Source of the DNA: a virus
Lineage: Duplodnaviria > Caudoviricetes
Virus record (IMG/VR): IMGVR_UViG_3300009136_000005
Coordinates: 1 to 60,792 of that record
Direction: 5' to 3' (one strand)
Length of the DNA stretch: 60,792 nt
The position numbers and the translations under genes were made by a program. Positions within the stretch are counted from its first letter, which is position 1. Each line of letters starts with the position of its first letter. This document shows, in pieces, positions 2-52,687 of this stretch. Under the pieces are notes generated by a model. The model was not told the origin of the DNA. It searched no databases and was given only the letters and a program-made list of their open reading frames with translations.

Positions 2-31
2 GCAATTTATATTTGGCAGAGAACAGCATAA
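2..31 (+). CDS. 3' end of upstream structural gene (partial), paralog of the next gene
   Basis: Frame 2 reads AIYIWQRTA*, matching the C-terminus ALYMWERTA* of 31..1125; TAATG stop/start overlap. Confidence 0.7.
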   Translation, partial: AIYIWQRTA

Positions 32-3656: not shown

Positions 3657-3668
3657 TAGGATTATAAA

Positions 3669-5924: not shown

Positions 5925-5936
5925 TAGGAGAATATA

Positions 5937-6710
5937 ATGGCACAACCACCAATTCAAAGTTTTCAAATATCACCAGGAACTGGAACATCGTTTCCAGTTA
6001 GTCCTTCGGTCGGTAATCAATTTTTATTAACTGCTGATATTGCTTCTGGTTCTCCGCTTGTCGCAACTTATCTTGCTGGAAATTATGTGTGGGATGGAGC
6101 CGAATGGATATCACGTCCATCAAGTTCAGCGAGTAACTGGGGTTGGAATGATTTAAGAGGACACATTGATGTTAATACAGCCGTGCCAGGAACTGCTCCT
6201 GACTGGGAAATCGTTAGAGATAATGTTTTTGCTTGGGCATTTGCTCCCGCAAGTCTTGAACAAGCATACGTATCGTTTCATTTTAATCACGATTACGTGC
6301 CAGGAACTGATATTTATCCACACCTTCATTGGACACACAATGATGCATCACCAGGAAGTACAAGTGTACGGTGGGTAATGGAATATACTATCGCTCGTGG
6401 ATATGAATTTGAAGCATTCCCTGCAACCACTACTATCACATTAGATGATGCTGTTGCTGGACAATATATACATCACATAAGAGAAGGAACACCAAATGAA
6501 ACTGGAGGCTCGCCACCAATATCAACTATAATTGATGGGACAAACATTGAAGCTGATACTATGGTGTTGATGAGAATATATCGTGATGGAGCTGCAACAG
6601 AAGATGATTTCGCATCTGATGCTTTTCTTTTAGAAGTTGATTTGCACTATCAATCCTATGTACAATCTGTAACGCCTGAAAGAAACCGTCCGTTTACAAT
6701 CTTCCCATAA
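5937..6710 (+). CDS. Putative virion structural protein
   Basis: AGGAG RBS, last gene of the structural run; FP-x-SP-x-x-G...Y-x-WDG-x-x-W N-terminal motif typical of phage fibre proteins; 2 GSP motifs. Confidence 0.55.
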   Translation: MAQPPIQSFQISPGTGTSFPVSPSVGNQFLLTADIASGSPLVATYLAGNYVWDGAEWISRPSSSASNWGWNDLRGHIDVNTAVPGTAPDWEIVRDNVFAWAFAPASLEQAYVSFHFNHDYVPGTDIYPHLHWTHNDASPGSTSVRWVMEYTIARGYEFEAFPATTTITLDDAVAGQYIHHIREGTPNETGGSPPISTIIDGTNIEADTMVLMRIYRDGAATEDDFASDAFLLEVDLHYQSYVQSVTPERNRPFTIFP

Positions 6711-34671: not shown

Positions 34672-36015
34672 TTAAGAAAACAATTCTTTAAGTTCTTGTA
34701 ACGGCTCTTCCCACGATCGTGGTTTCATTTGTCTAAACACAGTTAGGTTTTCTCCATACCATGGCGAACGTGGCTGATTATGAGTCCATGTATAATATGA
34801 AGAGATAGGCGATAACAAAATTGTCTTCTTACCCATCGCAGCAGCCATATGAACAATCGATGTGCATGAAGTAATTACCACATCAAGATTTTCGATAACC
34901 GACATCGTATCCTTAAACGTTTCTAACCGATCTGATAGATCTGAAATTTGTGGATATGCTTCTAATTGTTCAAGTCCTGTATCTCGTTGAAGTGAATAAT
35001 ATATTCCATTAACACCTTCAAGTGCATTCATTATTCCAGCGAGTGGAACTGAACGGTGTAAGTCTTGATCGTAGTCAGGATTTCCTTCCCAACGCACTCC
35101 AATCTTTAATCGTGCTTTGTGACTATGCATCCACTCCCACTTCTTGTCATATTCTAGTAATGTGTTAAGGTAAGGTCCATACCACAGATCTTTATATTGC
35201 AAATTCAGATACACAGGCAACGACATTGGATATGTCCAAACAGGATTTTCTAAATCCGTAATATCCCTTCGTTGTGACGTTGCTTTAAATCCGTTCTCAT
35301 TAAAAATGTCAACAATATCTTGTCTTTCAGAATACCAAATTGGATTCATGCCAACATCTGTTAAGTGTTTCATAAAACGAACATTAATTATTTCGTCGCC
35401 GATGCCAGCCTCAGCATAAAGAACTATATTACGTCCTGGCAGTATTCCACCATCCCAAAATTTAAATGGAAGTTTCGCTTTCCGCCAATAGTCTAACTTT
35501 TCTCCCTCAATTAAAAATCGTCGCAACCCTTGTTGGAATTTATCATTCCACATATCATATGTTCCAAGGTTGAACTCAATTTTTGTTCGCGTCTCTTCTT
35601 CAATGTCAGTTCGTTCTAATTCTGCAAGAAGTATTTCTTCTGCTTGATCTTTTTGGTTTAGTAGGAAATATGAATATGCTTTTTCTAATCGTGTCGCCTC
35701 GTCGTTTGGATTAACCTTTTCTTGAAGGTTAATTAAACGCATTGCTTTTTCTGGATAGTTAGCATGATTATAAATGTTAATTAAATTTGATCTTGCAACT
35801 TGCATTTGGTCATTACTGTATGCTGTTACCATCATCTTCTCACCATACACCATAGCACGATCATATATTTTTGTGTTGAAAAAACTTTTAGCGATATCAT
35901 CATACTCTTCGAACGTTGATGCATATTTTCCAAACGTTTCGAGCAGACTAATTACTTGCTGGTCCTCTTTATTCTTATGAAGAAATTCACATATGTTACT
36001 TAATACATCATTCAT
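34672..36015 (-). CDS. TPR-repeat + GT9-like glycosyltransferase (FlbA-like)
   Basis: N-terminal helical repeats; EAGIGD, IGVRWEGNP, YSLQ, DTMSVIENLDVVITSCTSIVHMAAAMGK, SPWY. Confidence 0.85.
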   Translation of the reverse strand: MNDVLSNICEFLHKNKEDQQVISLLETFGKYASTFEEYDDIAKSFFNTKIYDRAMVYGEKMMVTAYSNDQMQVARSNLINIYNHANYPEKAMRLINLQEKVNPNDEATRLEKAYSYFLLNQKDQAEEILLAELERTDIEEETRTKIEFNLGTYDMWNDKFQQGLRRFLIEGEKLDYWRKAKLPFKFWDGGILPGRNIVLYAEAGIGDEIINVRFMKHLTDVGMNPIWYSERQDIVDIFNENGFKATSQRRDITDLENPVWTYPMSLPVYLNLQYKDLWYGPYLNTLLEYDKKWEWMHSHKARLKIGVRWEGNPDYDQDLHRSVPLAGIMNALEGVNGIYYSLQRDTGLEQLEAYPQISDLSDRLETFKDTMSVIENLDVVITSCTSIVHMAAAMGKKTILLSPISSYYTWTHNQPRSPWYGENLTVFRQMKPRSWEEPLQELKELFS

Positions 36016-36554
36016 TTTACTGCTGCCAATATTATCCACGTTTCTGTATATACGTTATTAAAATTTCGTGACACTTCGTCGATATCATCTATTGTCATGT
36101 CAGCAAATCTTCCCTTCCAAATATCGTCTGGTTTAAATGTAAACTGAACAATTTCAAAATCCACCCCATACTGTAAAGCAAATAAAGAACCATCATTCCA
36201 TTGTTCTTGTCTATACAAATTATTTGCTTTACCAAACTGTCGCAATGACTCAACTGTGATTGGTCGTATGTGAGTTACATCACCAAAGAATACTTCGTGG
36301 CGATGGTGTGGAACTTGGATATCAATAATTGCTCCATCTTTACATACACGATACATCTCTTGCATCAAGTGAAAGAATCCATCACCTATGTGTTCAAGTA
36401 TGTGGTGTGCTTTAATTTCATCAACTGATGAATCATCAAATGGTAATTTGTCTTTTTCTAAATCAACAACATGGTCAGGTTCGCATTGCGGATTATTATC
36501 GACATTTACAAAACCTTTAAATTTTTTATATCCACTACCAATACTAATTTTCAT
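36012..36554 (-). CDS. Class I SAM-dependent methyltransferase-like protein
   Basis: IGSG...NVD...DL..LPFDDSSVDEI..HILEH..EMYRVCK.G. Confidence 0.8.
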   Translation of the reverse strand: MKISIGSGYKKFKGFVNVDNNPQCEPDHVVDLEKDKLPFDDSSVDEIKAHHILEHIGDGFFHLMQEMYRVCKDGAIIDIQVPHHRHEVFFGDVTHIRPITVESLRQFGKANNLYRQEQWNDGSLFALQYGVDFEIVQFTFKPDDIWKGRFADMTIDDIDEVSRNFNNVYTETWIILAAVK

Positions 36555-36915
36555 TTGCTATCCTATAATATGTTTTATTTTCTTTTGTCCACTCATCTAA
36601 GTAATTAATTATCTCAGGAGTTAACGCTTGGTTGTTTTGTGATATCACTTTTAAATATTGATTACCACCTTCTGTCTCAACTGAAATTAGAACACCACAT
36701 TGTGATGGCTTCATCCATTCAGGAAGTAATCCTTGCGACCATGCGCACTGATAGTTTCTACAAACATCAGGTCGCGTTTGGTATATTGTACATTTATTTT
36801 CAACTAAAAATATACAAGGATTACCATGTCCAAATTTGTTACCGTATGCATCACCTATTAAAGCACCTGAGCAACAAACAGTACAATCTCCACACGGTCT
36901 AAGTTCTATCTCCAT
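36544..36915 (-). CDS. YkgJ/FliB-type CxxCxxCC cysteine-cluster protein
   Basis: CGDCTVCC...CIFL...CTIYQTRPDVCRNYQC. Confidence 0.85.
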   Translation of the reverse strand: MEIELRPCGDCTVCCSGALIGDAYGNKFGHGNPCIFLVENKCTIYQTRPDVCRNYQCAWSQGLLPEWMKPSQCGVLISVETEGGNQYLKVISQNNQALTPEIINYLDEWTKENKTYYRIANEN

Positions 36916-37679
36916 ACTTCCATGTTGCTAAATTGATGTTGAATGTCGGGTGGGATAATCATCTCTCGTTCAACCCACTCAACTTTCTTTCTTGTTGTGT
37001 GCATATCTTCAATACCAACATCACTATCATATTCAGGATAAGAACATGCTGTGTTATTAAAGTCATGTTCATAAAGTGGTTGGTCAATAAAATTATAAAT
37101 TGCTGTTAACATCCCTCGTGGATTTTTACATAGCTGTTCATACTCGACAAACATTAGCATATCTTTTTCGTGAGATGTTAGTGCTTGTTTTAAACTAAGG
37201 TATGCAAATCCAACAACACTTGATTCTTGCATTAAATAATTACAACGAGAGTAAACGGTTGCTGCTTGGTCATCAGGAATTAATAATGCTTTGCTGTAAG
37301 GATCCCTTCTGTGTAATTGTTCAAATGAATCAAGTACCCAATTAATATCACGAACACACATTATTACTTTTGTGTATGGGAATAAATCTTTTAACAAAGA
37401 AAGTTGCAATCCCCAACTTCTGTTAGTATCAAAGAAAACATTTTTATCAGGAGTATCAAAATAATTATCAAAAATTCCATGTATAATATTCTTTCGTTTT
37501 TCTGTAGGGCACTCAGTTTGGTATCCTGTCATCGCAGATGATTGATCAATTATAGCACGAGAGAATCTTGCAACAGGACCCGAAATAGAAGCTTGGAATT
37601 TAGGGTTTTGATTTAGGATTGTTGACAAAAGGGTTGTACCCGAACGAGGCAATCCCGATATGAAGTAGTATTGTGACAT
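36906..37679 (-). CDS. Sulfotransferase
   Basis: GLPRSGTTLL 5'-PSB loop, VRD...S 3'-PB, YEQL. Confidence 0.9.
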   Translation of the reverse strand: MSQYYFISGLPRSGTTLLSTILNQNPKFQASISGPVARFSRAIIDQSSAMTGYQTECPTEKRKNIIHGIFDNYFDTPDKNVFFDTNRSWGLQLSLLKDLFPYTKVIMCVRDINWVLDSFEQLHRRDPYSKALLIPDDQAATVYSRCNYLMQESSVVGFAYLSLKQALTSHEKDMLMFVEYEQLCKNPRGMLTAIYNFIDQPLYEHDFNNTACSYPEYDSDVGIEDMHTTRKKVEWVEREMIIPPDIQHQFSNMEVWR

Positions 37680-37702
37680 GAATATTCCTATATTTTATTT
37701 CT

Positions 37703-37717
37703 TATAAATATATTTAT
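37703..37717. promoter_or_regulatory. Palindromic bidirectional late-type promoter
   Basis: TATAAATATATTTAT gives ATAAATA on both strands between divergent genes. Confidence 0.6.
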
Positions 37718-38057
37718 GATTAAAATTTTACTAGGAATGGCGATAATGTTGTTTGCAATTATGGCCGCTGCTTCCACAATGTCAGGCTCATTACAGTACA
37801 ACCCCACTCACGATCGACAAGCTTTTATTATTGATATCAAAATCATTCCAAGAGAACAAATCAACGAAATTTGTCAAAATATTAGTAAAGGTAAATTTGA
37901 AGGTGAACAAATAAATGGATGTGCCGCATGGGCCGTTGATAAAAATATTTGTAGAATTTATGTTCCCGAACCACTACACAATGAAGTTAGGCAAGGTGTC
38001 CTATCTATATGGGGTCATGAATTAATGCATTGTGCAAAAGGAAGTTTTCACGAATAG
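37716..38057 (+). CDS. Secreted/periplasmic protein with HExxH motif
   Basis: Signal peptide; GHELMHC; several Cys. Confidence 0.65.
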   Translation: MIKILLGMAIMLFAIMAAASTMSGSLQYNPTHDRQAFIIDIKIIPREQINEICQNISKGKFEGEQINGCAAWAVDKNICRIYVPEPLHNEVRQGVLSIWGHELMHCAKGSFHE

Positions 38058-38861
38058 TTATGTTCGCCAGAATTGAGCATCGAGATATTTGTTATATGCT
38101 TGTTCACCAATTAAAGATTTAGCATCTACGATAACAGGTTTTACTTCTGGACGAATTATGTGTAACCCTGGAATGCCATGAATGTCATCATTCTCTTGTG
38201 TTACTTGCTCAACATTATTAAAGTCGTGTGCAAATTTTTCTTCACCTAGAAATTCATAAATTTTGTCCATCGTTATCGCTGGTGATGTTGTAAGGTGTTC
38301 AAATTCAATGAAGTGCAATCGATCGTTAAATCCACGACTGATTGCATCACGTATTCTATTGTATGCTATTCCAACTGGTTGATCGTTTCGCATCCATATA
38401 CCAGCGCGTCCTTCAACAGTTTGCCATTCGTAATAGTTACTCTTCTCTTGTGGGAATTGCCATTCGTGTGTTTGGCTTCTGTACAATTTCTCAAACGATG
38501 CAAGAATATCTGTGATGTTTCGAACTGGGACTAATACTTTAATTTTACGATCTAATACATGTTCCGCTAGTTCAATAAATGCTGTCCATGCTCTTGATTT
38601 ATCAAACACTACTGGACGGTTGATGGTGGAATAATAACTTGGCAGTATTTGTTTAATAACTGCGTTCTTACCTTCTTTATTTGGAGAGGCGGCGAATGCG
38701 CCAACGGCCTCCCATTGATTTCTAATAGCAAGAACTATATCTAAAATTCCTGACGTAGATGTTGCATGAAATCTGGGATTTTGGTTGAGGATGTTGCATA
38801 ACAAGGTTGATCCCGAACGTGGGAGACCTGCTATCATATGTATTATTTTATCTTGTGCCAT
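38058..38861 (-). CDS. Sulfotransferase (paralog)
   Basis: GLPRSGSTLL, DKSRAW, VRN...ASFE; TATAAATA 4 nt upstream of ATG. Confidence 0.9.
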   Translation of the reverse strand: MAQDKIIHMIAGLPRSGSTLLCNILNQNPRFHATSTSGILDIVLAIRNQWEAVGAFAASPNKEGKNAVIKQILPSYYSTINRPVVFDKSRAWTAFIELAEHVLDRKIKVLVPVRNITDILASFEKLYRSQTHEWQFPQEKSNYYEWQTVEGRAGIWMRNDQPVGIAYNRIRDAISRGFNDRLHFIEFEHLTTSPAITMDKIYEFLGEEKFAHDFNNVEQVTQENDDIHGIPGLHIIRPEVKPVIVDAKSLIGEQAYNKYLDAQFWRT

Positions 38862-38903: not shown

Positions 38904-39374
38904 TTATAAAACAAATTCTACACTTACAGCGCCTGAACCATCCCAGCTAGCAGGTACGTTTATTGTTTCGCCAACACCCCAATACCATACTGACCAATCG
39001 GAAGTAGGCCCTGAAGTGCCATCATAGGTGGCATCGGCCGTGTCCAGAGTAATCTCTCCCGCCCCAAGAAGTATAATGCTGGTGAACCATGCTGCACCTA
39101 ACGTCACGGCATCAAAACCAACGTAAACCTCATCTCCTCCTCCAAAACCCGCTGTGAGCCAAGGACTGAGTCCGATGATAGTTTCGCTGTTCCATGTGTT
39201 ATCATTAAGCGAACCAAAAGCACCTCCTCCATTGCCCCACCAGCTGTTAAAAGCAGTGGTCTGAAAACCCACAAGATTGCTGTCAGATGAGTCGAATCCC
39301 TGCGTGACTATTCTAACGTCAGGATCACTTGCCTCTGCTACAGATTGTACTATTTTTCCGGTTGCGCCAAACAT
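38904..39374 (-). CDS. Tail fibre-associated beta-rich protein
   Basis: TAATG coupling to 39374..41611; Trp/Gly/Ser-rich. Confidence 0.55.
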   Translation of the reverse strand: MFGATGKIVQSVAEASDPDVRIVTQGFDSSDSNLVGFQTTAFNSWWGNGGGAFGSLNDNTWNSETIIGLSPWLTAGFGGGDEVYVGFDAVTLGAAWFTSIILLGAGEITLDTADATYDGTSGPTSDWSVWYWGVGETINVPASWDGSGAVSVEFVL

Positions 39375-41611
39375 TATGCGAAGCCCTGTCCACCAAGGAA
39401 TCCCAACCAAGTAGTACCGCCATCACGAGTAACAAACGACACAATATCAACACCTGTTCCCCACGTAGGTTCAGTAGCGGCTGCCCAATCTACCGATGCA
39501 GGCCATGTCAGGGTTGCGCCATCAGCACCCAACAGCTCTAACGTAAAGCTACTCACACGCCCTGTGGCTGCAGGATTGCTGAAGGTAAAAGTAATAACCG
39601 CAGCACCAAGATCTGCTGATGGGTAGAAGTAAGTTGCTAAGGATACATCTAAATCGCGCGTTCCTGTAGTAGCTGTATATTGATCTGCATCTTCAGAATA
39701 TCCAGCTTGCAACTCTAGTTCTCCAACAACTTGTATCACACCATCTGCACCAGAGCCTGCTGCTGTTCCTGGTGTTAATATTATGTCACCTGCATCACCT
39801 GAAGTTGCTCCGCCTGCTCCGCCTGTAACAGTTACATCGCCACCAGCTGTGGTTGCATTACCTGCTGCACCGCTGATTTGTATTGCGCCGCCGACACCAA
39901 GGGTAGTTGGAACACCACCTGTAATTACTACAGCTCCGCCATCGCCCGATGTAACGCCGCCGTTACCTCCGGCTATGGTAACTATGCCGCCAGCACCTGT
40001 GTTACTTCCCGCGCCTTGATCAGCGGTGCCGCCCGTGACAAACGTTCCGCCGCCATTGCCTGACCCATCGCCAGCACCACCTCGAATAGTAGCTGTGCCA
40101 CCGATATCATTGGTAGTAGTTGCTGCCTGACCGCCAAGCACTATCGCGTTACCTGGTGGGCCTGCTCCTGTTAATAATCCCAGGCCACCCCTAAGTGTAG
40201 CATCGCCGCCACCAGTTGTTCCGCGACCGCCAGCTACCAAGGCATATCCGCCACCACCAGTAGTTGCGTCACCAGCTACTATGCTGACCTGGCCACCATT
40301 TCCGTTAACGCCGTCTCCGCCGTAAATACCAACGTAACCACCCGATGAATCTGTAACGTGTGTAGAACTGCCGCCTCGAATTATTACGGCAGCACCCTCA
40401 GCGTAGTTTTGCGACGAAGAACCACCCGTTATGTTAACAGCGCCAGAGTAGGAGTATAAGGCGGTACCTTCGCCGCCAGTTATGTTGACTGCGCCAGCGT
40501 AACCGTACCCTGTAGAGTTGTTGCCGCCAGTTATGTTGACTGCGCCACCGTAGCCGGCGTTTTCTGCTGAAGCACCGGCAGTAATATCAACTGCACCGCC
40601 GGCGCCGGATGTTGCTCCGCCGGGACCTGCTGTAATTGTAATTGGACCACCAGCACCTGTTGTTCCGCCGTTACCGCCTAATAGGCTAGCAGCGCCACCA
40701 GGTTGTGTTCCTGTGGAATTTCCGCCTCTTGCGGATACAAATGCGCCTGCTCTGTTTGTTCCTGTACCGTCACCAGCATTAAGGTCGATTTCGCCACCGT
40801 TTCCGTCTGTTGATGTACCTGCTGTTAAGTTTATTGCGCCGCCCTTAGCGCCTGTTGCTGAACCACCCAGTCCACCAACAATTTCAATTTTGCCTGCATT
40901 ATTAGCAGCACCACTAGTTAGTGTTACGTCTCCGCCGTCAGCGTACTGACCAGCGTTAGGATTTGCTCCACCTGTTAAGTTTACACCACCGGCTTTTGCA
41001 GATTCGCTATTGGCATCTAATACTCCGCCGATAATATTTACAGCACCACCTTGACCGACATCAAATCGCTCACCGGCAGTTACATTAACGTCGCCAGCAG
41101 TACCAGAAGTCGCACCACCATCTGCAGCGACTAATGTGACTGAACCACCAGCGGAAGTGACTGTTGCGGCTGGTTTACCAACAACATCAAAATCATTAAC
41201 GTCTAAGTTTCCACCAAGTTGTGGAGTTGTGTCATCAACAAGATCTCCACCGCCACCACCAGCTGCTGCAAATACTAAATTAGTTGAGCCTAATACGATA
41301 GGATTGATTGTAGTTAACACCCAACTTTGCACGCCGTTAGAACCTTCCTGAACCCAAACTTGCATACCAGAACTAATATCTTCTGAACGGTCTGCATCCT
41401 CTGAACGAGTCCACGTGCCTGACTGAACAACATATATTCCGTTTGTAGTTTGGTCACCTTGACCTGCAACAAGACATCTGTCGCCAGCAATTAACGATAC
41501 AGTATCAACAGTTTGTGGCGCTGATAGTGTTATAGGTGAGGTTGAGACTGCTCTGACAGAGTCTTTCGTCGTTAAGTTTTCAAGTTGAAGAACATTTATC
41601 TTTTTTTGCAT
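39374..41611 (-). CDS. Gly-rich tail fibre protein
   Basis: ITLSAPQTVD..GDRCLV..Q....NGIY head domain; TPQLGGNLDVN; GGAVNITGG repeats; C-terminal WPASVDW...D...TRDGGTTW domain. Confidence 0.8.
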   Translation of the reverse strand: MQKKINVLQLENLTTKDSVRAVSTSPITLSAPQTVDTVSLIAGDRCLVAGQGDQTTNGIYVVQSGTWTRSEDADRSEDISSGMQVWVQEGSNGVQSWVLTTINPIVLGSTNLVFAAAGGGGGDLVDDTTPQLGGNLDVNDFDVVGKPAATVTSAGGSVTLVAADGGATSGTAGDVNVTAGERFDVGQGGAVNIIGGVLDANSESAKAGGVNLTGGANPNAGQYADGGDVTLTSGAANNAGKIEIVGGLGGSATGAKGGAINLTAGTSTDGNGGEIDLNAGDGTGTNRAGAFVSARGGNSTGTQPGGAASLLGGNGGTTGAGGPITITAGPGGATSGAGGAVDITAGASAENAGYGGAVNITGGNNSTGYGYAGAVNITGGEGTALYSYSGAVNITGGSSSQNYAEGAAVIIRGGSSTHVTDSSGGYVGIYGGDGVNGNGGQVSIVAGDATTGGGGYALVAGGRGTTGGGDATLRGGLGLLTGAGPPGNAIVLGGQAATTTNDIGGTATIRGGAGDGSGNGGGTFVTGGTADQGAGSNTGAGGIVTIAGGNGGVTSGDGGAVVITGGVPTTLGVGGAIQISGAAGNATTAGGDVTVTGGAGGATSGDAGDIILTPGTAAGSGADGVIQVVGELELQAGYSEDADQYTATTGTRDLDVSLATYFYPSADLGAAVITFTFSNPAATGRVSSFTLELLGADGATLTWPASVDWAAATEPTWGTGVDIVSFVTRDGGTTWLGFLGGQGFA

Positions 41612-41673: not shown

Positions 41674-42024
41674 TTATAGTTTGCTTTTGTAACGATCCTT
41701 TACGGCAGTTTTATATAATCCAACATTAGCGTATGCAGATTGAAGATCTGAACTATTCTCGTATGTAATTTCAAGTACTGCGGCAAATGCTTTCTTTGCT
41801 TCAGAAAGCTCTAATGCACGTGCTTCGAGTTCTGCTGCATCAACGTCTGCATCAAGAACAGCTTCAATCTCATCGTATGTTGGTTGAGCTCGACCATCTG
41901 TCCACGAAGTAATAACTCCTGCTCTTGTTGTGCATAAAGCACCTGGAACAAGGTATTCTAATTTACGATAATCTGTAAATTTTGTTAGTGGTATTTCTGG
42001 TGATCCGCCTGGTGAGCCTGCCAT
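41674..42024 (-). CDS. Putative tail fibre assembly/XkdW-like chaperone
   Basis: AGGAG RBS; L.YLVPGA...W.D.R.QPT; begins MAGSPGGSP. Confidence 0.6.
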   Translation of the reverse strand: MAGSPGGSPEIPLTKFTDYRKLEYLVPGALCTTRAGVITSWTDGRAQPTYDEIEAVLDADVDAAELEARALELSEAKKAFAAVLEITYENSSDLQSAYANVGLYKTAVKDRYKSKL

Positions 42025-42047
42025 TTTATTCTCCTGTTATATTATAT

Positions 42048-42112
42048 TTATGATTCGTATTCTGTTATTGATATCCAAGAGCCAACGTTACGCCCACCGA
42101 ATCGGTTGGTGG
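42048..42112 (-). pseudogene. Orphan 3' remnant of a displaced fibre gene
   Basis: Reads STNRFGGRNVGSWISITEYES*, homologous to the C-termini ...TITEYEA* and ...TITEYKA* of the upstream genes; no start codon. Confidence 0.7.
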
Positions 42113-42240
42113 AACTGTGCCTCTGGGACCAAGTAGCTAAGCTTACGGTAGTCCTTGAAGTCACTGAAGGGAATACGTTCCCCTTGGGTTTCTTCCCCGG
42201 TCTCGGGGTCGATGATTATTTCATATTGATCTTGTCTCAT
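42088..42240 (-). pseudogene. Truncated second chaperone gene (5' part only)
   Basis: MRQDQ...IPFSDFKDYRKLSYLVPEA then stop at codon 51; homologous to IPLTKFTDYRKLEYLVPGA of 41674..42024. Confidence 0.7.
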
Positions 42241-43259
42241 GCTTCGTACTCCGTAATCGTTAAATATGCCATCGGTATGCCACCTAGATAATCAGTGGAG
42301 TTATATCCACCCATTGAGTTCGTGGAAGCTACACCACAACCACAGCGTATCGAGAATGTGGTGGAGGCTGTTGAGCCTGCGGTGAGCCTGTGGTCAATGC
42401 TCTGACTTAGGGTATATCCACTGCCATTTGGGTTGACTCCGTAGTCCGCAGCAAGTGCATCAACGTCACTATCACGAAAAAGGGCTGAAGTAATTACATT
42501 ACCTACTGCCATCGTGAAACTCACGGTTGCATTGAACTCAACTCGAAGGATACTCGTGGTGCTCTTCGGGGTTATGCTTGCTGTTATGAACTCACTGCCC
42601 TCGCTGATCTGTGGGATAGTGTTATCAAACGGGAAGGTCCCGGTGCCTGTAACTACAGTGTTCAGATCAGTATGTACCTGCTGCACCACAATACCATGTC
42701 CACTATCAGCAACAACAGTTGGATCTGGATTGTCATATTGGATGTTAACGGAGCCTTCGTCAAAAGCTGTGGCTGTTGTACCAAGCTGGAACGTTGTTAG
42801 TTCACTGTCTAGTACTATGTGTCCAACCATCCAGCTGATAAAATCTGTACTATCAATGGTCATCAATGACCCAACACAAGCCCACGTATTGGTAGCAGCA
42901 TCATGGAGTGTAAAAGTAACTGTTCCGCTTTGGGCTTGTGTGTTCCCAAAGCTTCCATTGGTGAAAGCATTTAGGCTCTGTACAGCGGTTTGTGATGAAG
43001 AACCTAGCCACGCATATATACTGTCGTAGTCACCTGATGTACTGTAAACTCCAGTAGAGTCGCCTAGCCGGAATAAGAGGAAGCCTGTCGAGGAGTGGCC
43101 TAGGTTAGTAACCGTGACCTTGAACTCCTTCACCCCACTTGGGATGGTGAAGTTAATCTCAGTGCCAGCTGTTGTGTCCTGCTTTACACCATTAACAAAA
43201 ATCTGAGTAATACCATTACCAGCAAAAGCAATTCTGTTATTTGAAAAACCTTGTCCCAT
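42237..43259 (-). CDS. Tail fibre/receptor-binding accessory protein
   Basis: FTIPSGVK..., VVQQV..., ITPKSTTS, C-terminal TITEYEA; paralog of 43259..44806; GC-richer codon usage. Confidence 0.7.
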   Translation of the reverse strand: MGQGFSNNRIAFAGNGITQIFVNGVKQDTTAGTEINFTIPSGVKEFKVTVTNLGHSSTGFLLFRLGDSTGVYSTSGDYDSIYAWLGSSSQTAVQSLNAFTNGSFGNTQAQSGTVTFTLHDAATNTWACVGSLMTIDSTDFISWMVGHIVLDSELTTFQLGTTATAFDEGSVNIQYDNPDPTVVADSGHGIVVQQVHTDLNTVVTGTGTFPFDNTIPQISEGSEFITASITPKSTTSILRVEFNATVSFTMAVGNVITSALFRDSDVDALAADYGVNPNGSGYTLSQSIDHRLTAGSTASTTFSIRCGCGVASTNSMGGYNSTDYLGGIPMAYLTITEYEA

Positions 43260-44806
43260 TACGCTTTGTACTCCGTAATGGTAATGGAAGATGCCATTAC
43301 GCCGCCGAATTTACGGGCAGCGGCGCTTCCGTTAAAGGTTATTGTACCTGAATCATCAACCCCACCCCTTACTGAGAAAGTGGTAGAGCTGGTAGTGCCA
43401 GCATCCATCCAATGGGTGAGGTGTAGGATTTGTTGTCGGTTAGCATTGGATGTGTCTTCCTGCTGAGTCATGGCAGCAATTCCGGCACCTCCATCCTGAT
43501 GCAATGCTATAGAATGTCTGGGGTTGCCCACACTGTCAGACGCTTGAGAAACCACCACATCAACGCGAAGCTTATTAGCTACGTCTTTGGGTGTGATACT
43601 TGCCGACATCCACTCGTTGCCATCAGTGATAGCGGGAATAGTGTCGTCGTACGGCAGGACAGTTGTACCTGTTGCTACTTCACCATCCTGCGTATTCACT
43701 GTCTGCACAACACCACCACTGATCACACCTGAGCCAAGATCCAGATAAGGATTCTCATAAGAGCACCCAACAAAAGCGCCCGTACCATCCCACGTACTAC
43801 CATTGGGATTGAGGGCAACAGTTGTTAGCTCTTCACCCAAATCATTTTGAGTACCAGCCACTAAAACGAGCTTGTCGTCCGACAGGTCGGCTCCCATAAA
43901 ACTCATAGCCCAGATATGATTCACTGGGTCTTGGAGCCAGAATTCAGCAGTCCCGTGAATATCATCACCGGCAGCTGATCTTGGGAGGTGCCAGCCATCA
44001 TCTCCATCACCTGTTGTAGCAGTAGCAGCAGTAAGTAAAGTATCCGAAGTACGGTAGCCAGAAGTCATCAACCCGCCAGCCCCACCAATTTGGATAAGGA
44101 TATCGGAGCCTGCTGTGACGTCTGCTCGATTGATATGCAAGCTAAACCGCTTAACACTAGCAGGTATAGTGAAAGTTTTGGTGTCGGTGCCTGAGGCCAA
44201 ACTCTGCTGTGTCAGGAACTTGGTGACTTCAGTCACACCAGCCGGTGTGGAACTATTACCGCTTACTGCCAGGTCAGGATTTTCGTAGGAAACATAGAAC
44301 AACCCATCACCATCCCAGTCATCAGAACTGAAATCTATTTGGAGGGTGGTCAGTTCAGAGTCAAGGGAGATTGCTCCGTTAACTCCGTGAGTTTGGTTAC
44401 CACTCGATTGATCAGCCAACTGTCCTTGGGCAACCCACGTGTTTGTTGTTGGATCAGCTAGAGTGAATGACACAACACCGTCGAAATTATCACCGGCAGC
44501 ACTTCTCTCTACACTAAAGTAAGATGAGATACCAGCAGCGGCAATTGAAGATGCTCCTGTGCGCCAACCTACAGACGCATAACCAGTCGCCTTGACACTC
44601 GTGGCATCACCCAAGCGTATTCTCATATTCTGAGTGCCGTCACTACCCACATTCATCATACAAAGATCGAACTTCTTCACTCCCGATGGGAGTGTGAACG
44701 TGGCTTCGGTAGTACCTGATGAGCGAACTACAGGAGTCAGGTACTTGGTGATCTCTGTCTCGCCAGTTGCCTTAACAATATAATCTTTTGTAAAACCTTG
44801 ACTCAT
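43259..44806 (-). CDS. Tail fibre/receptor-binding accessory protein with duplicated domain
   Basis: Two TEVTK.L..SGT...FT.P..VK.F...YENP repeats then VVQTV...ITPK...TITEYKA. Confidence 0.7.
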   Translation of the reverse strand: MSQGFTKDYIVKATGETEITKYLTPVVRSSGTTEATFTLPSGVKKFDLCMMNVGSDGTQNMRIRLGDATSVKATGYASVGWRTGASSIAAAGISSYFSVERSAAGDNFDGVVSFTLADPTTNTWVAQGQLADQSSGNQTHGVNGAISLDSELTTLQIDFSSDDWDGDGLFYVSYENPDLAVSGNSSTPAGVTEVTKFLTQQSLASGTDTKTFTIPASVKRFSLHINRADVTAGSDILIQIGGAGGLMTSGYRTSDTLLTAATATTGDGDDGWHLPRSAAGDDIHGTAEFWLQDPVNHIWAMSFMGADLSDDKLVLVAGTQNDLGEELTTVALNPNGSTWDGTGAFVGCSYENPYLDLGSGVISGGVVQTVNTQDGEVATGTTVLPYDDTIPAITDGNEWMSASITPKDVANKLRVDVVVSQASDSVGNPRHSIALHQDGGAGIAAMTQQEDTSNANRQQILHLTHWMDAGTTSSTTFSVRGGVDDSGTITFNGSAAARKFGGVMASSITITEYKA

Positions 44807-45141
44807 TATGTAATCTCTTGACCGAATGCACTAAACGAAACTGTTGCGTTATCTGTATAAACTGTAATCTCATCTGCAGCACCTAACGACAAACCTATCG
44901 TTGATGTAAATGTTTCATTCCCTGGAATAATCAAATCGTAATAAATGTAATACTCGTTTGCAACGGGCGAACCTGCTCCGCTCGGCTCAACTGCTACACG
45001 AATTGTAGCTGAGATTGAACTTCTGTTACAAATAACAAGTGTTGATACAACGGCAGACGTAGCGCCAGGAACCGTATACAAGTTAGCGTAATTTGTCGCT
45101 GCGGGATTTGATTGTCCTAATATTTTTAATGTTGTTGGCAT
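44806..45141 (-). CDS. Small virion structural protein
   Basis: KILGQSNP...LYTVP...CNR...SFSAFG pattern; GAGG RBS; ATAAATA upstream. Confidence 0.7.
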   Translation of the reverse strand: MPTTLKILGQSNPAATNYANLYTVPGATSAVVSTLVICNRSSISATIRVAVEPSGAGSPVANEYYIYYDLIIPGNETFTSTIGLSLGAADEITVYTDNATVSFSAFGQEIT

Positions 45142-45183
45142 TTCTGTTCCTCTTGTGTTCTATTTATTATTGTTACTTTTGGG

Positions 45184-48100
45184 TTATCCGCCCATGAATA
45201 AGAATGATGTTGTTATTGGATCTGCAGGACCACTAATGCTTCCAGCTACTTCTAAGTCACCACTAATTAAAACATTCCCTGTTCCGTTAGTAATTTCAAT
45301 CGCATCGATCCAGCTAATGACATCACCAGGTGAACCTGCGATTGCTGAGCGCAATTTAGTATTACCAGTGCCGAGGAAACTTAAAGCACTCACTTCTTCA
45401 ATGCCAGATCGAACCCAATTAGATCCATTGTGATAACCACCACGTATGTAGTGTGAACCACCATCGTTGGTGGCTGACAGGAAGAACGTCTGAGCACCGT
45501 GTTCGATAACATCGAGAGTCGATAGGTGTGTTAAATGTGGAGCTGTACTTCCAAGGGATAGTACCTGACCATTCATATTTACGTTGCCGCTAGTGACATC
45601 GAGGCCATTCGATATAGTCGCTGCGCCGGTCAAACTGAGCGTCGAACCATCAAATGTTAGTGCGGCACTACCATCAATAGCATCAGAACCATTACCAATC
45701 GCAACTTGATTGTCAGCAATTGATCCACCGATAGTACCACCAGATGATTGATTCAATAACCAATCTGTACCAGCATCGTCGGTAAAAACTAATTCATTTG
45801 GTGTTGCAGTTCGAACCCACAATTCACCAAAAGTTGCAGCAGGGAAAGTTCCGATGTGGTTTGCTCGTTCAGTAAAACGCATTGTCCCACTTAATTGTAC
45901 TTCACCAGTTGAGAAATCACCTCCTATTAATGGAGTGTTTGATTCAGCATTATGGAGATATAATCTATTGGATTGGTTAGCTGTTGGTCCAGCATCTGTA
46001 CCAATCATTACATTATTGTCACCAGTAGTTATCTTCGCTCCAGCTTGATAACCAACAGCAACATTGCTATCTGCTGAACTGACTAGTGGCAACGTACCTC
46101 GTCCAATACCTATATTGTTTGCTGAAGTTGTTAGGTTAGTTCCTGATATTGCTCGACTACCAATCGCTATATTGTAACTACCTGTACCGGAGCCTCCACC
46201 TGCAGTAATACCCAACGCTTCTGTACCAATAGCAATATTTCTTTCACCGGAGATCATCATTATACCAGCACTTTGACCAAGACCAACAACATTATTTGCG
46301 GCAGTTAATCTATTAAACGCGTTAGCACCCAATGCAATATTGTATGCTCCTGTCGTGAGTGCAGTTAATGTGTCAGTGCTAATGGCAATATTTAAGAACG
46401 CAGAAGTCAACACCGAAGATTCCATTGCACCTTTACCAATAGCAACATTCTCGCGACCAGTTCCTGCTGCCGATGCATCATAAAGTGCGTTGCTACCTAT
46501 TGCAACATTATCGTCACCAGTCGTTGTAGCTCCACCTGCATTAATTCCAGCAAAGAAGTTACTTAATCCACTCGCTGCTGTTAAGTTTGCACCAGCTCCT
46601 GTACCACCGATTATGTTGCTGTCACCATCTTCTGTAAATAATCCACCTCCACCAGCAGCTTGTGGTTCATATTGATTGTTAGCTGCAACCCAAGTTAATA
46701 CATCTCCATCAGCAATTGGTGAGCCACCATTCGCAGAAATGTATCCTTCAATTGTTACATCACCAGAAAGTGTAGTAAGCGCAGTAGTCAAAGTTATCGA
46801 GTTCTCTGCCCTGAACTCAATGCTATCGACTTGAACGTTGACATCAGTGCCAGAGCGTTCGATAATCATATAGTTGTAGTTAGTCCCGAAATTATCTCGG
46901 GAGATTAGGTGGTTGAGCGTTTCACCAATTACATCTATCTCCCAGATTTTCTGATCTAAACCAGCATCACTCTCATCAAAGCGAAGTTGTGGGTTTGGTG
47001 CGTCAAGATTTAACCGGGCGTTGCCTGCGGTTGCGACTATGTTGAGGGTAGTTGGACTCGCTCCGTTGATCGTAACGGAGGTATCGAAGTTGGCGGCGCC
47101 TGCAACGTGGAGTGTTGTGTCGTTCCATGTGAGGTTTGCACTACCTTCAATTGTTCCATCGCCTGTCCAAACACCTACTTGATTATCAACTGGTGTGCCA
47201 ACTTTAAATACATTAGCAACTGGACTTCCAGCTCCACCACCAGATGTAGCCAAGTCAGTTGACACGCCGTTCAAACGAACAAAGAATTCACCGGCAGCAG
47301 TTACCCACACATCGCCATCAACTGGAGCACTTGGTGCTACACCTTCTGGTATGTTAAAGCTCGGATCTCCAGTCGCACTTGCTAGGAATGTAACTTTTTG
47401 AGCGTGCGTAGTTCCATTAACATCATCAAGCGTCATGGCAGTAGTTTTTACACCAATACCGGTTGATATTTCTAAGTCACCAGCAGTTTCATCCCAACGC
47501 ATCCATGTATTGCCATCATTGCGGAAAAGCATATCCCCTGTAGTAAGGGTTGCGCCATACAGTAAAATATTTGCACCAAGCTGATCAGTACTGCCACCAC
47601 TGATGACCATCAATCCAGTATCATGGCTGTTAACTACATTGGTTTGTAACGTACCACCGCCATCGCCAATCGTTACATTACCGCCAAGGTTTGTTTGACC
47701 AGTTAGTGATAGAGTGCTCCCATCCCATGTAAAATTAGAATCACCTTGAATCGTAGTCCCATCGGTCCATATAGCAACTTCGTTATTAAGTGGAACTGGT
47801 GAACCATAAGCACTTACAGTTCCACCAGCCGCGAGATCAACAGATGCGCCGTTCAGCCTAACAAAGAATTCACCAGCTGCTGTCGTCCATGTATCACCAT
47901 CAATAGGGCTTGTTGGTGCTACACCAGTTTTAATGTTAAGTCCGGCTCGTCCTGCGATGCCAGCGGCAGTATTAACCTTGCCGAACATGTCGAGTCCCTG
48001 ACCATCAATATTTAATATCTGTCCACCACCAACAACGAATACTAATGCTGAGCCGATGTGTGATATGTAATCGTTAGACCCACCATCGAAGAACATCTTG

Positions 48101-50541
48101 GCTACACTCGGGATTTTAATGTCACCAGTAACTACGAGGTCACTATTGATTGTGACATCAGTAGCAGGAGAGCCTACACCTGTTATGTTACCACTAATAA
48201 TAAGATCACCACCTACATCTAATGTTGATCCATCCCAAGTTATGTTCGAATCACCTTCTAATGTTCCATCACCTGTCCACACACCAACTTGATTGTCTGC
48301 TGGTGTACCAACTTTAAATACATTAGCGACTGGTGAGCCGCCACCTCCAAGATCTGATGTTGTTAATACTCTTTCCCAGCCAGCACCAGTTAATGTATTG
48401 TTAACTTCAAATCCACCACTTGTTTCAATTATAGTTCTTGCAACGTCAGTATCCGTTTGTTGTAATAACACTTGACCAGTTTGAGATTTTATTTTTACAT
48501 CACCAATCTCGTTGTTAACTTGTAATGATCCGTCACCGTCAATGAATCCAATATTACCAATATTAGCGCTTGTTTGATCTCGCATCAAAATACGGTTCCC
48601 AGCAGCCGTACCTGTTGAGTTGTTGTCGTACAAATACATTGCACCAAATGCATTACGTACATCAAGTTCACCAGTGACCAAAAGTATTGAACCACTCCAA
48701 GTTAAGTTTGCATCACCTTCAACGGTTGTTGCATCTGTCCATATAGCAAGTTGATTGTTAACTGGTGTTCCTGTATTGCTTACATTACCGCCGCCTGCAG
48801 GTGCTTGTGGTTCAAATTGACTGTTAGCTGCAACCCAAGTTAAGACATCGCCATTAGCAACTGGAGATCCAGCTCCAGTTATGTTACCACTAATATATAA
48901 ATCACCAGTTAATAAAACTGGATCAGCTGTTATAGTAAGATCATTTGCATTTGTCGCAGAAAAAGTAGCTCGTGGAACCAAGTCGCTGGTTTGTAATTCT
49001 AAATTAATTTCCGATGCAGATTGTGATGCAACTTCTAACGTGTTTGAAGTAACAGCATCTAAAACAATATTTGAAGAACCAATAGTAACTGTACTAGAAA
49101 CATCTAACGTACCAGTCAATAATACATTAGTAGCGGCACCGGCTCTTGTTTGAATATTAAGATTACCACTTGTTGGTGTTTGTATTGTTAAGTCATCACC
49201 ATTAGCAAGAAGGCGAGAATCTCCATTTGAAACCCCAGTTTCTGTTAACCGCAATTCTGTAAATGTGCTTGATATTTCTAATACACCACTGCTCCAAGTA
49301 AAGTTTGCATCACCTTCAATTGTTCCATCGCCAGTCCACACACCGACTTGGTTATCCGCTGGTGTACCAACTTTAAATACATTAGCGACTGGTGAGCCGC
49401 CGCCTTCGCCTTGTGATACCGCTGGTTCGTATCTTTGATTGGAAGCATTCCAAGTTAATACATATCCGTTTGTTATTGGCGATCCACCAACATTTGTGAC
49501 AACATCAAAACCGCCTTGTTGTAATGTTCCAACTGTAACATTTACTTCACCTGTGTTTGTTAATACAAGATTTGTTTTAAGAGTTGTTCCGTTCGTATCA
49601 TACTTTTGAAGAACCATTATGTCGCTTGCTTCGTTGTATGCTAACAAGCCTCTGCGTGTACTATTCTCAGCAAAAGTTAAGTACGTATCAAATCCATCAT
49701 CGGAATCAAGAGTAAGGTTTGTTAATACACCTGCTCTGTGTAGTGTTAAATCACCATCAATAGTTTGTCCACCAACGGTAGAAATTATTTCGTTTCCGTT
49801 TGATTGGTTGATGGTTCCAGTAAGATTTACTACGTCAGCAATTACACCAGTTCGTTGAATAACAATTGCATCACCAACGCCAATCGGACTTCCTCCAATT
49901 CCACTATCATCGACTGGACGGATTCTTAATTCTTCTGAGTCACTAATTATATGCCATTCTTTGTTGTCGACGGATCCATCTGAATCAGATAATTCAAGAG
50001 TAGCAGAAGAACCTGCTATCATTAAATTATTAGCGATTGTTTGATCGCCAAGAGTATCAATTACTTCAACCCAATCAGCATTTCTTCTTCCGTATGTGAC
50101 ACCATCGGAAGGCGCATCTGTAAGTCCTATTGGCGATCCGACATCAACAGCATTTGCAATTCTTTTCCAAACAAGACCTGTTACTCCTAATGTAATTGGA
50201 TCGAGCGTTTCCATTAACCATATTTGTCCACCATTTATTAGGCCGTCTTGAACATACGTCTGTGTTCCAGATGACATCGCCTCTGATGAATTACTATCAG
50301 CCGAGCGAACCCACGCACCAGCTTTAACGTCATATATTCCATTCGTAGCAGCGTCAGCTTGATTTTTTACTAAACATCTGTCATCAGCAACTAACGCGAT
50401 ATTATCGATCGTTTGTGTTCCTGATAGTGTGATTGGAGCGACTGTTGCAGCTCGGACATTTCCCTTTGCAGATAAGTTTTCAACGTCTTTGACGAAGATC
50501 GTTTTTATCTGCTGCTGAACATTTATCTTTTCTTGGCCCAT
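45184..50541 (-). CDS. Long tail fibre protein (1785 aa)
   Basis: Head domain shared with 39374; DAPSDGVTYGR; repeated NQVGVWTGDGTIEG modules; YadA-like NIAIG repeats; 11 GSP motifs. Confidence 0.85.
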   Translation of the reverse strand: MGQEKINVQQQIKTIFVKDVENLSAKGNVRAATVAPITLSGTQTIDNIALVADDRCLVKNQADAATNGIYDVKAGAWVRSADSNSSEAMSSGTQTYVQDGLINGGQIWLMETLDPITLGVTGLVWKRIANAVDVGSPIGLTDAPSDGVTYGRRNADWVEVIDTLGDQTIANNLMIAGSSATLELSDSDGSVDNKEWHIISDSEELRIRPVDDSGIGGSPIGVGDAIVIQRTGVIADVVNLTGTINQSNGNEIISTVGGQTIDGDLTLHRAGVLTNLTLDSDDGFDTYLTFAENSTRRGLLAYNEASDIMVLQKYDTNGTTLKTNLVLTNTGEVNVTVGTLQQGGFDVVTNVGGSPITNGYVLTWNASNQRYEPAVSQGEGGGSPVANVFKVGTPADNQVGVWTGDGTIEGDANFTWSSGVLEISSTFTELRLTETGVSNGDSRLLANGDDLTIQTPTSGNLNIQTRAGAATNVLLTGTLDVSSTVTIGSSNIVLDAVTSNTLEVASQSASEINLELQTSDLVPRATFSATNANDLTITADPVLLTGDLYISGNITGAGSPVANGDVLTWVAANSQFEPQAPAGGGNVSNTGTPVNNQLAIWTDATTVEGDANLTWSGSILLVTGELDVRNAFGAMYLYDNNSTGTAAGNRILMRDQTSANIGNIGFIDGDGSLQVNNEIGDVKIKSQTGQVLLQQTDTDVARTIIETSGGFEVNNTLTGAGWERVLTTSDLGGGGSPVANVFKVGTPADNQVGVWTGDGTLEGDSNITWDGSTLDVGGDLIISGNITGVGSPATDVTINSDLVVTGDIKIPSVAKMFFDGGSNDYISHIGSALVFVVGGGQILNIDGQGLDMFGKVNTAAGIAGRAGLNIKTGVAPTSPIDGDTWTTAAGEFFVRLNGASVDLAAGGTVSAYGSPVPLNNEVAIWTDGTTIQGDSNFTWDGSTLSLTGQTNLGGNVTIGDGGGTLQTNVVNSHDTGLMVISGGSTDQLGANILLYGATLTTGDMLFRNDGNTWMRWDETAGDLEISTGIGVKTTAMTLDDVNGTTHAQKVTFLASATGDPSFNIPEGVAPSAPVDGDVWVTAAGEFFVRLNGVSTDLATSGGGAGSPVANVFKVGTPVDNQVGVWTGDGTIEGSANLTWNDTTLHVAGAANFDTSVTINGASPTTLNIVATAGNARLNLDAPNPQLRFDESDAGLDQKIWEIDVIGETLNHLISRDNFGTNYNYMIIERSGTDVNVQVDSIEFRAENSITLTTALTTLSGDVTIEGYISANGGSPIADGDVLTWVAANNQYEPQAAGGGGLFTEDGDSNIIGGTGAGANLTAASGLSNFFAGINAGGATTTGDDNVAIGSNALYDASAAGTGRENVAIGKGAMESSVLTSAFLNIAISTDTLTALTTGAYNIALGANAFNRLTAANNVVGLGQSAGIMMISGERNIAIGTEALGITAGGGSGTGSYNIAIGSRAISGTNLTTSANNIGIGRGTLPLVSSADSNVAVGYQAGAKITTGDNNVMIGTDAGPTANQSNRLYLHNAESNTPLIGGDFSTGEVQLSGTMRFTERANHIGTFPAATFGELWVRTATPNELVFTDDAGTDWLLNQSSGGTIGGSIADNQVAIGNGSDAIDGSAALTFDGSTLSLTGAATISNGLDVTSGNVNMNGQVLSLGSTAPHLTHLSTLDVIEHGAQTFFLSATNDGGSHYIRGGYHNGSNWVRSGIEEVSALSFLGTGNTKLRSAIAGSPGDVISWIDAIEITNGTGNVLISGDLEVAGSISGPADPITTSFLFMGG
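47140..49400 (-). repeat. Three near-identical ~90-nt internal repeats in the long fibre gene
   Basis: GSPVANVFKVGTP(A/V)DNQVGVWTGDGT(I/L)EG at about 47150-47240, 48250-48345 and 49305-49400, conserved at DNA level. Confidence 0.8.
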
Positions 50542-52489: not shown

Positions 52490-52687
52490 ATGAAAATAAA
52501 GAAAATCACAATAGATTTAGGTAGTCCAGTCAATCGCATTCTCTGCTTTATAGGTGGGTTTGGTTGGATAGCTGGTGTGGTTATCGCAAACGGATTTTGG
52601 AGCACTTTCTTTTCCGTATGTTTTGGACCATTTTGGGCTTGGTATTTGTCTGTTGAAAAATTACTTCAAATGGTAGGTGTGATATGA
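52490..52687 (+). CDS. Small membrane protein
   Basis: WIAGVVIA.GFWST...P.WAWY hydrophobic pattern. Confidence 0.65.
   Translation: MKIKKITIDLGSPVNRILCFIGGFGWIAGVVIANGFWSTFFSVCFGPFWAWYLSVEKLLQMVGVI

Follow-up and report, generated by a model that had tools for sequence, protein, structure and literature searches.

A Gly-Ser-Pro tripeptide on the outer virion proteins of some XacN1-like jumbo phages: a candidate recognition motif

In a 60,792-base stretch of viral DNA (hereafter, the window), we found that the tripeptide Gly-Ser-Pro (GSP) occurs in the outer virion proteins ~14-fold above chance. The excess is specific for one order of residues and for Ser, reflects selection on the protein, is located on variable loops, is conserved among GSP-rich relatives, and is patchily distributed among phages that are otherwise closely related. 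We propose that GSP may be a motif read in trans, most likely as a sequon for modification of its Ser, a reading to which we give a little less than an even chance. An earlier reading of the same sequence (the original prediction) had reported a GSP tag recurring across virion proteins and had suggested that it serves as an acceptor sequon or a docking site. The pattern expected of a recognition motif, with sites gained on loops and then conserved, was borne out by our analysis, and the suggested link to a nearby cluster of glycosyltransferase and sulfotransferase genes was not.

The window is an entire IMG/VR virus record (IMGVR_UViG_3300009136_000005; Duplodnaviria, Caudoviricetes), classed as linear and 19% complete, which makes it part of a phage genome of ~300 kb. 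Gene content and relatives place this phage as an XacN1-like jumbo myovirus. In G003, a syntenic relative of the window, the major head protein shares 68% identity with its counterpart in Xanthomonas phage XacN1, and 64-65% identity with those of Stenotrophomonas phages CM1 and RAS14 and Xanthomonas phage Xoo-sp13. The genomes compared with the window (G000) were the complete, 363-kb genome G001; the syntenic relatives G002-G004 and the further genome G008, all fragments; G005 (292 kb, 90% complete), G006 (84% complete) and the fragment G007; the cultured and complete XacN1; G025 (complete, 372 kb); and G011, an unrelated T4-like phage of 136 kb.

GSP excess in the window

Open reading frames (ORFs) of the window were called mechanically, as greedy longest ORFs of at least 50 amino acids (aa). 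On this set, 28 GSP were found in seven proteins, four of them encoded at 13-6710 (one, six, five and two GSP) and three at 41674-50541 (two, one and eleven), which reproduces the original per-protein counts for structural proteins exactly. The remaining ORFs of the set hold none. The seven genes are as follows:

13..1125, plus strand: 370-aa baseplate/fibre protein with a C-terminal Gp10_C domain (PF21939, E 1.4e-15); 1 GSP, at aa 69
1107..3656, plus strand: 849-aa fibre-type virion protein; 6 GSP (aa 274, 368, 487, 528, 761, 817) vs 0.44 expected
3669..5924, plus strand: 751-aa fibre-type virion protein; 5 GSP (aa 12, 73, 185, 680, 716)
5937..6710, plus strand: 257-aa virion-cluster protein; 2 GSP (aa 38, 191)
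41674..42024, minus strand: 116-aa fibre-operon protein; 2 GSP, in the N-terminus MAGSPGGSP
44806..45141, minus strand: 111-aa tail-fibre-like protein (phrog_11338); 1 GSP (aa 57)
45184..50541, minus strand: 1785-aa tail fibre/spike protein; 11 GSP vs 0.49 expected

Their matches to Gp10_C (baseplate), to several tail-fibre and tail-spike PHROGs and to one 'virion structural protein' PHROG assign these products to the tail periphery (fibre and baseplate) of the virion.

The original prediction had estimated that composition would yield only a few GSP, and had proposed comparing observed and expected counts against shuffled sequences and against permutations of the motif. Within-protein shuffles of the seven proteins gave a mean of 1.94 GSP (standard deviation 1.37) and, in 5000 rounds, never more than 8. 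No tripeptide in these proteins is as enriched as GSP (Poisson P = 5.9e-23); AGS comes second (1e-6). The permutations of GSP number between 0 and 4 (GPS 0, SGP 2, SPG 4, PGS 4, PSG 3) and GTP occurs five times vs 2.3 expected.

We considered whether the excess could be an artefact of composition, of internal repeats, of shared ancestry of the seven proteins, or of a repeat at the DNA level. The proteins are indeed Gly/Ser-rich, and three stretches of ~350 aa in the 1785-aa protein (residues ~376-625, 733-949 and 1099-1300) are paralogous repeats, with homologous GSP sites in each. Because the repeats are paralogous copies, its 11 GSP count as ~6-7 independent sites, so that repetition explains ~4-5 of them; the corrected total for the window is ~23 independent GSP, still >10x expectation. 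Composition is answered by the shuffles, which retain it, and shared ancestry by the unrelated folds that carry GSP and by the orthologues in GSP-poor phages that lack it. As for the DNA, the codons of GSP differ from site to site: they draw on both Ser families and on all Gly and Pro codons, matching the general usage of the genes. Furthermore, in 61 GSP-bearing proteins pooled from five GSP-rich genomes, the corresponding DNA pattern is in frame 172 times, and the two other sense frames show it 0 times and once. This diversity of codons, together with the restriction to one frame, indicates that selection acts on the protein, as had been proposed from the codons alone. An artefact was thus tested for and rejected, and we give it practically no weight.

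Residue specificity and sequence context

The 172 GSP in the pooled proteins compare with 12.6 expected. Since these 61 proteins were chosen for carrying GSP, comparison with variants of the motif is more informative than this ratio. In the same proteins, single-residue variants are near chance, with 27 GTP (15.7 expected), 20 ASP (10.8), 19 TSP (13.8), 11 GAP (12.7) and 3 GGP (15.4). Neither Thr, Ala nor Gly substitutes for Ser in the motif.

The residues around the motif are also constrained. The original observation that V, I or L commonly follows GSP holds for 17 of the 28 window sites; across 153 sites, L, I and V are over-represented after Pro (L 3.3x), and G, S, T or V precedes Gly. Lys and Arg are nearly excluded, with 0-1 occurrences per position from -2 to +2 among the 153 sites. 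The flanks show alternating hydrophobic residues, as between two strands. The GSP do not form collagen-like G-X-Y repeats: they are isolated or 4-200 residues apart and follow no triplet register.

Distribution among related phages

GSP counts divide the compared genomes into two groups. GSP is in excess in G001 (87 vs 15.7 expected, P = 8e-36), G002 (23 vs 2.6), G003 (29 vs 4.1), G004 (11 vs 4.3) and G008 (19 vs 3.5), and it is the top tripeptide (10^-8 to 10^-35) of the window, G001, G002, G003 and G008. By tripeptide ranking or counts it is unremarkable in G005 (14 vs 14.9), G006 (13 vs 18.5), G007 (1 vs 2.0), XacN1 (22 vs 24.3), G025 (26 vs 23.3) and G011 (5 vs 7.1).

Within the complete G001 genome, 72 of the 87 GSP fall in 13 proteins (3.8 expected), and the remaining proteome is at chance level (15 vs 11.9). 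Ten of these 13 proteins were scanned against PHROGs: six matched tail-fibre, tail-collar, virion structural, baseplate wedge, sheath and head-tail adaptor families, and four had no match. G003 has 1-2 GSP apiece in its tail sheath, adaptor and major head protein.

The trait is all-or-none and patchy within the phage family. In a tree of 84 capsid proteins, the GSP-rich genomes fall into at least three separate groups (G003/L117/L118; G001; and L144/L154/L149/L162, with 9 GSP vs 1.6 expected), with GSP-poor genomes in between. The 78 homologues of the 849-aa fibre protein are bimodal, with 26 that carry 4-25 GSP (0.3-0.6 expected) and 52 that carry 0-3; the richest contain tandem runs such as GSPxxGSPxxGSPxxxGSP. 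Of 80 loci that carry this fibre family, nine are strongly GSP-rich (P < 1e-4), one reaches P = 8e-4 and the others are at chance; the richest locus, L263, has 32 GSP vs 1.8. No clear GSP excess is seen at any of the loci with distant homologues of the 1785-aa fibre repeats (L021-L046).

Gain and conservation of GSP sites

The original prediction held that GSP was repeatedly gained on surface loops of the virion, and suggested aligning homologues from related phages. Such alignments indicate that GSP has been inserted in a lineage-specific manner on variable loops and insertions of many unrelated virion proteins, and has then been kept. Between the window and G003, whose orthologues are 47% identical, eight of nine GSP are kept, vs 12% of other triplets that are identical, while the residues around them vary freely. 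The kept sites include aa 69 of the 370-aa protein, five sites of the 849-aa protein (the G003 orthologue of which is 40% identical) and both sites of the 257-aa protein, neither of which is GSP in the G005 orthologue.

When GSP-rich G001 is compared with GSP-poor G005 (51% identical), G005 has GSP at only one of 45 G001 sites, vs 18% for other triplets. Almost half of the G001 sites (22 of 45) fall in alignment gaps, vs 11.6% of other triplets (Fisher 8e-10), and the 10 residues on either side of GSP are 26% identical vs 48% elsewhere. Such sites are seen, for example, where the sheath has an insertion and in a loop of the head protein that varies; in the G001 sheath, the GSP (aa 160-172 and 263) precede the part of the protein that matches the sheath family. 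Likewise, the GSP positions of the 1785-aa repeats are occupied by other residues or gaps in distant homologues, none of which has GSP there. In a low-confidence model of the 849-aa protein (predicted local distance difference test score, pLDDT, 51.3; predicted template modelling score 0.32), its six GSP are in coil, three of them directly between strands.

An enzyme cassette beside the fibre operon

Directly after the minus-strand fibre operon, at 34672-38861, lies a cassette of genes for potential modifying enzymes:

34672..36039, minus strand: 455-aa protein with N-terminal tetratricopeptide repeats (TPRs; residues ~7-181) and a C-terminal GT-B glycosyltransferase fold
36012..36554, minus strand: methyltransferase
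36544..36915, minus strand: CxxCxxCC-domain protein
36906..37679, minus strand: Sulfotransfer_3 sulfotransferase
38058..38861, minus strand: second Sulfotransfer_3 sulfotransferase

The model of the 455-aa protein (pLDDT 86.3) has ten TPR helices (residues 7-181) followed by a Rossmann-type two-lobed domain. In a profile search, its N-terminal half (residues ~40-165) matched consensus TPR proteins (E 1e-19). Foldseek matched the model with probability 1.00 to SPINDLY (8dtf, a protein O-fucosyltransferase) and to the O-GlcNAc transferases (OGTs) of Xanthomonas (XcOGT, 2jlb) and human; full-length TM-scores are 0.28-0.34, and the catalytic half is closest to the GT9 heptosyltransferase 3tov (TMt 0.53). 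At the sequence level, no GT41 Pfam model matched, with only sub-threshold hits to TPR_19 and Glyco_transf_9 (15.4 bits, cut-off 22), and a profile search of PDB sequences returned TPR proteins only. We regard the protein, on the basis of its modelled fold, as a candidate protein O-glycosyltransferase (TPR-GT). The two sulfotransferases match PF13469 at 68.7 and 55.4 bits (cut-off 27), and the only PDB sequence matches of the first (36906-37679) are the protein-tyrosine sulfotransferases (TPSTs) TPST1/2, which are weak (E 4e-4).

G001 holds four cassette genes at 58-75% identity (one sulfotransferase, the CxxCxxCC protein, the TPR-GT and the methyltransferase). The GSP-poor G005, G006 and XacN1 lack the TPR-GT. 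The list of TPR-GT homologues is headed by the enzymes of the window and G001 with five proteins from short contigs, at 65-75% mutual identity, and the next are at most 59% identical; this drop sets the group apart, so that it may be a subclade with its own specificity. A scan of viral contigs with the TPR-GT gave no match, and a metagenome scan at no less than 65% TPR-GT identity returned only one short contig and G001 itself. G001 further lacks matches to GT2, GT1/4, prolyl-hydroxylase and Pkinase (Ser/Thr kinase) families, which makes the cassette the only recognisable phage-encoded candidate among those tested.

Beside the cassette in G001, we also observed a seven-blade RCC1-repeat protein (L008:8626-9759). 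Other phages, too, encode related repeat proteins on the flanks of the cassette.

Two further genes were tried as candidates and dropped. An RlaP-like nucleotidyltransferase, common to G001-G004, was no longer specific to GSP-rich phages once XacN1 was included. A small basic protein of 66-92 aa (window 9808-10086), which had at first seemed confined to GSP-rich loci (6 vs 0-1), proved to have weak homologues in the GSP-poor loci L265 and L269; it forms a Lys-rich helix.

How GSP might be read

We propose that GSP would be a short linear motif for recognition by a factor acting in trans. In some lineages of XacN1-like jumbo phages, outer virion proteins (fibres and baseplate, joined in relatives by sheath, adaptor and capsid) would have acquired it time and again on exposed variable loops and retained it thereafter. 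Recognition in trans is in our view the best explanation because it accounts for an ordered tripeptide on unrelated proteins, for its all-or-none distribution, and for its conservation and tandem runs. Most likely, the Ser would be modified covalently, through O-glycosylation or attachment of a different O-linked group. Recognition by the enzyme would depend on Gly at -1 and Pro at +1; a following aliphatic residue would be favoured and Lys or Arg close by disfavoured, and virions would end up covered in a surface adduct. The reader could be encoded by the cassette beside the fibre operon or could, equally possibly, be a host enzyme.

A number of observations weigh against this proposal. GSP-poor G011 carries it, with proteins 49-84% identical (four genes, with one sulfotransferase copy); the complete and GSP-poor G025 has a TPR-GT homologue (E 1e-182); and a more distant copy occurs in G021, whose fibre locus L261 has 1 GSP vs 2.0. 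The co-occurrence of GSP with the glycosyltransferase/sulfotransferase cluster that the original prediction had envisaged is thus not specific, and since the cassette also occurs in GSP-poor phages, a link between the two is not established. As a sufficient cause of the GSP excess, the cassette is ruled out by G011 (5 vs 7.1) and G025 (26 vs 23.3). Among the GSP-rich genomes it is recorded in the window and G001, the fragments G002-G004 and G008 being only 14-23% complete. The TPR-GT family is moreover widespread, with 750 metagenomic proteins that are named at most 'TPR repeat protein'; the 10-kb flanks of 30 more distant TPR-GT metagenome loci have no GSP excess (22 vs 13.8), and neither have those of 12 sulfotransferase-bearing loci. 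When 10 GSP-rich loci or genomes were compared with 13 GSP-poor ones, no gene family was specific to the GSP-rich set, and a host-encoded reader is for this reason as likely as a phage-encoded one. In addition, O-glycosyltransferases usually accept Thr besides Ser, and GTP is just 1.7x enriched in the pooled proteins. Surface exposure is read from alignment gaps and not from structure, because the sole model of a GSP protein has a pLDDT of 51. Finally, that a factor reads GSP, that Ser is the acceptor, and the identity of the enzyme, its chemistry and the covalency of the product are points that we infer.

The three remaining explanations differ from modification of the Ser in what, if anything, would act on the motif. 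GSP could be a structural loop element, a rigid, protease-resistant or aggregation-blocking turn favoured by the environment or the host and read by nothing. Pro and Gly are common turn residues, the alternating hydrophobic flanks are typical of strand-turn-strand, the low-confidence 849-aa model places all six GSP in coil, and the comparison of GSP-rich with GSP-poor gene sets yielded no GSP-specific enzyme. However, a generic turn should not be limited to one ordered tripeptide, and GAP, GTP, GGP, ASP and the permutations are near chance; nor would one expect an all-or-none split between phages with 50% identical orthologues, and tandem runs such as those of the richest fibres are left unexplained. 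We therefore consider a purely structural role rather unlikely, while giving it some real weight.

GSP could instead be a non-covalent docking site for some protein that attaches to many virion loops. The partner might be a prolyl isomerase, a chaperone of fibre assembly, a protein that decorates or cements the particle, or a host protein of the cell surface or of defence. Such docking draws on the same distribution evidence as a modification sequon (recognition in trans, exposed loops, multivalent tandem runs), and the requirement for Ser without Thr would suit a binding pocket as well as an enzyme. Yet three residues give little binding energy, capsid, sheath and fibres would all need one partner, and no candidate partner co-occurs with GSP, the small basic protein having homologues in GSP-poor loci; we judge docking to be quite unlikely. 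Virion proteins of jumbo phages are often processed at short motifs, which would be the argument for GSP as the cleavage site of a maturation or host protease. However, one fibre or virion protein can have 11-25 sites, some in tandem, and the 116-aa protein has a site as early as residue 3. Cleavage would shred proteins that need to stay intact and in which the sites are conserved, and we find this explanation highly improbable.

A more specific form of the modification reading can be sketched. GSP might be the sequon of a new Ser-specific modification that would cover the entire exterior of certain giant phages and be installed in the cytoplasm by the OGT-like TPR glycosyltransferase of the window and G001 subclade, perhaps with elaboration by the TPST-like sulfotransferases and the methyltransferase, and might represent one case of a wider, hitherto overlooked habit among large phages of carrying lineage-specific three-residue surface tags. 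Taken as a whole, we regard this scenario as speculative and unlikely.

Relation to known systems and possible significance

Modification of phage particles has a reported precedent. Freeman et al. 2023 reportedly described O-glycosylation of mycobacteriophage virions by phage-encoded glycosyltransferases near the structural genes, which presumably coats capsid and tail surfaces, and the gene for a TPR and GT-B protein directly after the fibre operon resembles that arrangement. In the mycobacteriophages, the sites reportedly lie in Ser/Thr-rich C-terminal extensions of capsid and tail-tube subunits and follow no tripeptide sequon, whereas here an ordered, Ser-specific GSP, known from sequence alone, occurs on internal loops of many proteins.

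A short O-glycosylation sequon is known from the general system of Bacteroidota, D-(S/T)-(A/I/L/V/M/T), which is periplasmic and acts on exported proteins. GSP resembles it in having three residues, a hydroxyl acceptor, an aliphatic preference afterwards and many sites per target, but differs in having Gly before, Pro after and Ser only, and the enzyme class of that system differs from a GT-B protein. Phage particles, moreover, assemble in the cytoplasm, unlike the periplasmic site of O-glycosylation in Bacteroidota.

The 455-aa protein has the same build, N-terminal TPRs followed by a C-terminal GT-B domain, as OGT and SPINDLY (GT41) and as Caulobacter FlmG. We know of no preference of OGT-, SPINDLY- or FlmG-type enzymes for G-S-P. 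The 455-aa protein differs from OGT and SPINDLY in lacking sequence-level membership of GT41, and its gene also occurs in GSP-poor phages. For FlmG, one report (PMC7591256) assigns substrate specificity to the N-terminal domain. In the open-access literature that we searched, no description of a GSP motif in phages was found.

If GSP is a modification or docking tag, many uncultured giant phages would chemically decorate tails and heads alike, with defined sites numbering in the dozens to hundreds, and this would bear on host recognition, particle stability and evasion of recognition by hosts or grazers. A compact three-residue tag with its cognate enzyme might, if real, also be of use in protein engineering. 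In any case, GSP is a marker, read from sequence only, that divides close relatives into carriers and non-carriers, and this makes the question accessible to comparative genomics combined with mass spectrometry.

Fibre genes without GSP and other observations

Three genes of the fibre operon carry no GSP, and a further small ORF holds the only GSP outside the virion genes:

39374..41611, minus strand: 745-aa fibre protein; 0 GSP
42237..43259, minus strand: 340-aa fibre-operon protein; 0 GSP, raised G+C content at third codon positions (GC3)
43259..44806, minus strand: 515-aa fibre-operon protein; 0 GSP, raised GC3
52490..52687, plus strand: 65-aa hydrophobic small ORF, likely a membrane protein; 1 GSP

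Absence of GSP from the three fibre-operon genes (39374-41611 and 42237-44806), which the original prediction had pointed out, was seen again in our ORF set. Their composition predicts 0.52 GSP; at the enrichment of their neighbours, 7.5 would be expected, and the probability of finding none is P(0) = 5e-4, which makes it unlikely that they share the history of their neighbours. The genes in 42237..44806 had been called GC-richer and apparently imported. Their GC3 is indeed raised (0.42-0.43 vs 0.18-0.30), and they are probably recent imports from a GSP-poor source; all three GSP-free genes look like recent arrivals in a GSP-rich genome. The lone non-structural GSP that had been placed in an ORF at 52490 was found in 52490-52687, the coding status of which is uncertain because longer ORFs overlap it on the opposite strand.

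Several observations lie outside these questions. The modules of the 1785-aa fibre share a core, GTPxDNQVxVWTGDGTIEG..., that many unrelated phages from marine and freshwater settings also have in their tail fibres. Other tripeptides are in excess in other genomes: the XacN1 proteome has 325 TPT vs 43.6 expected, 175 PTP vs 28.4 and 143 VTP vs 31.5, presumably because a few of its proteins have long runs of Pro/Thr linker, and G006 (loci L100-L114) has 58 GPQ/PQG vs 11.9, in collagen-like repeats, as well as an excess of WCW/CWC (11 vs 0.6-0.8). In G001, DGY reaches only ~2x (38 vs 17.6). Lastly, G004 (L056:7602-8615) and G001 (107966-108982) encode a fusion of a solute-binding SBP_bac_3/Lig_chan-Glu_bd domain to an Ion_trans_2 ion-channel pore, the architecture of a glutamate-receptor-like ligand-gated channel; both of these phages are GSP-rich, and none of the GSP-poor genomes in the comparison has the gene.

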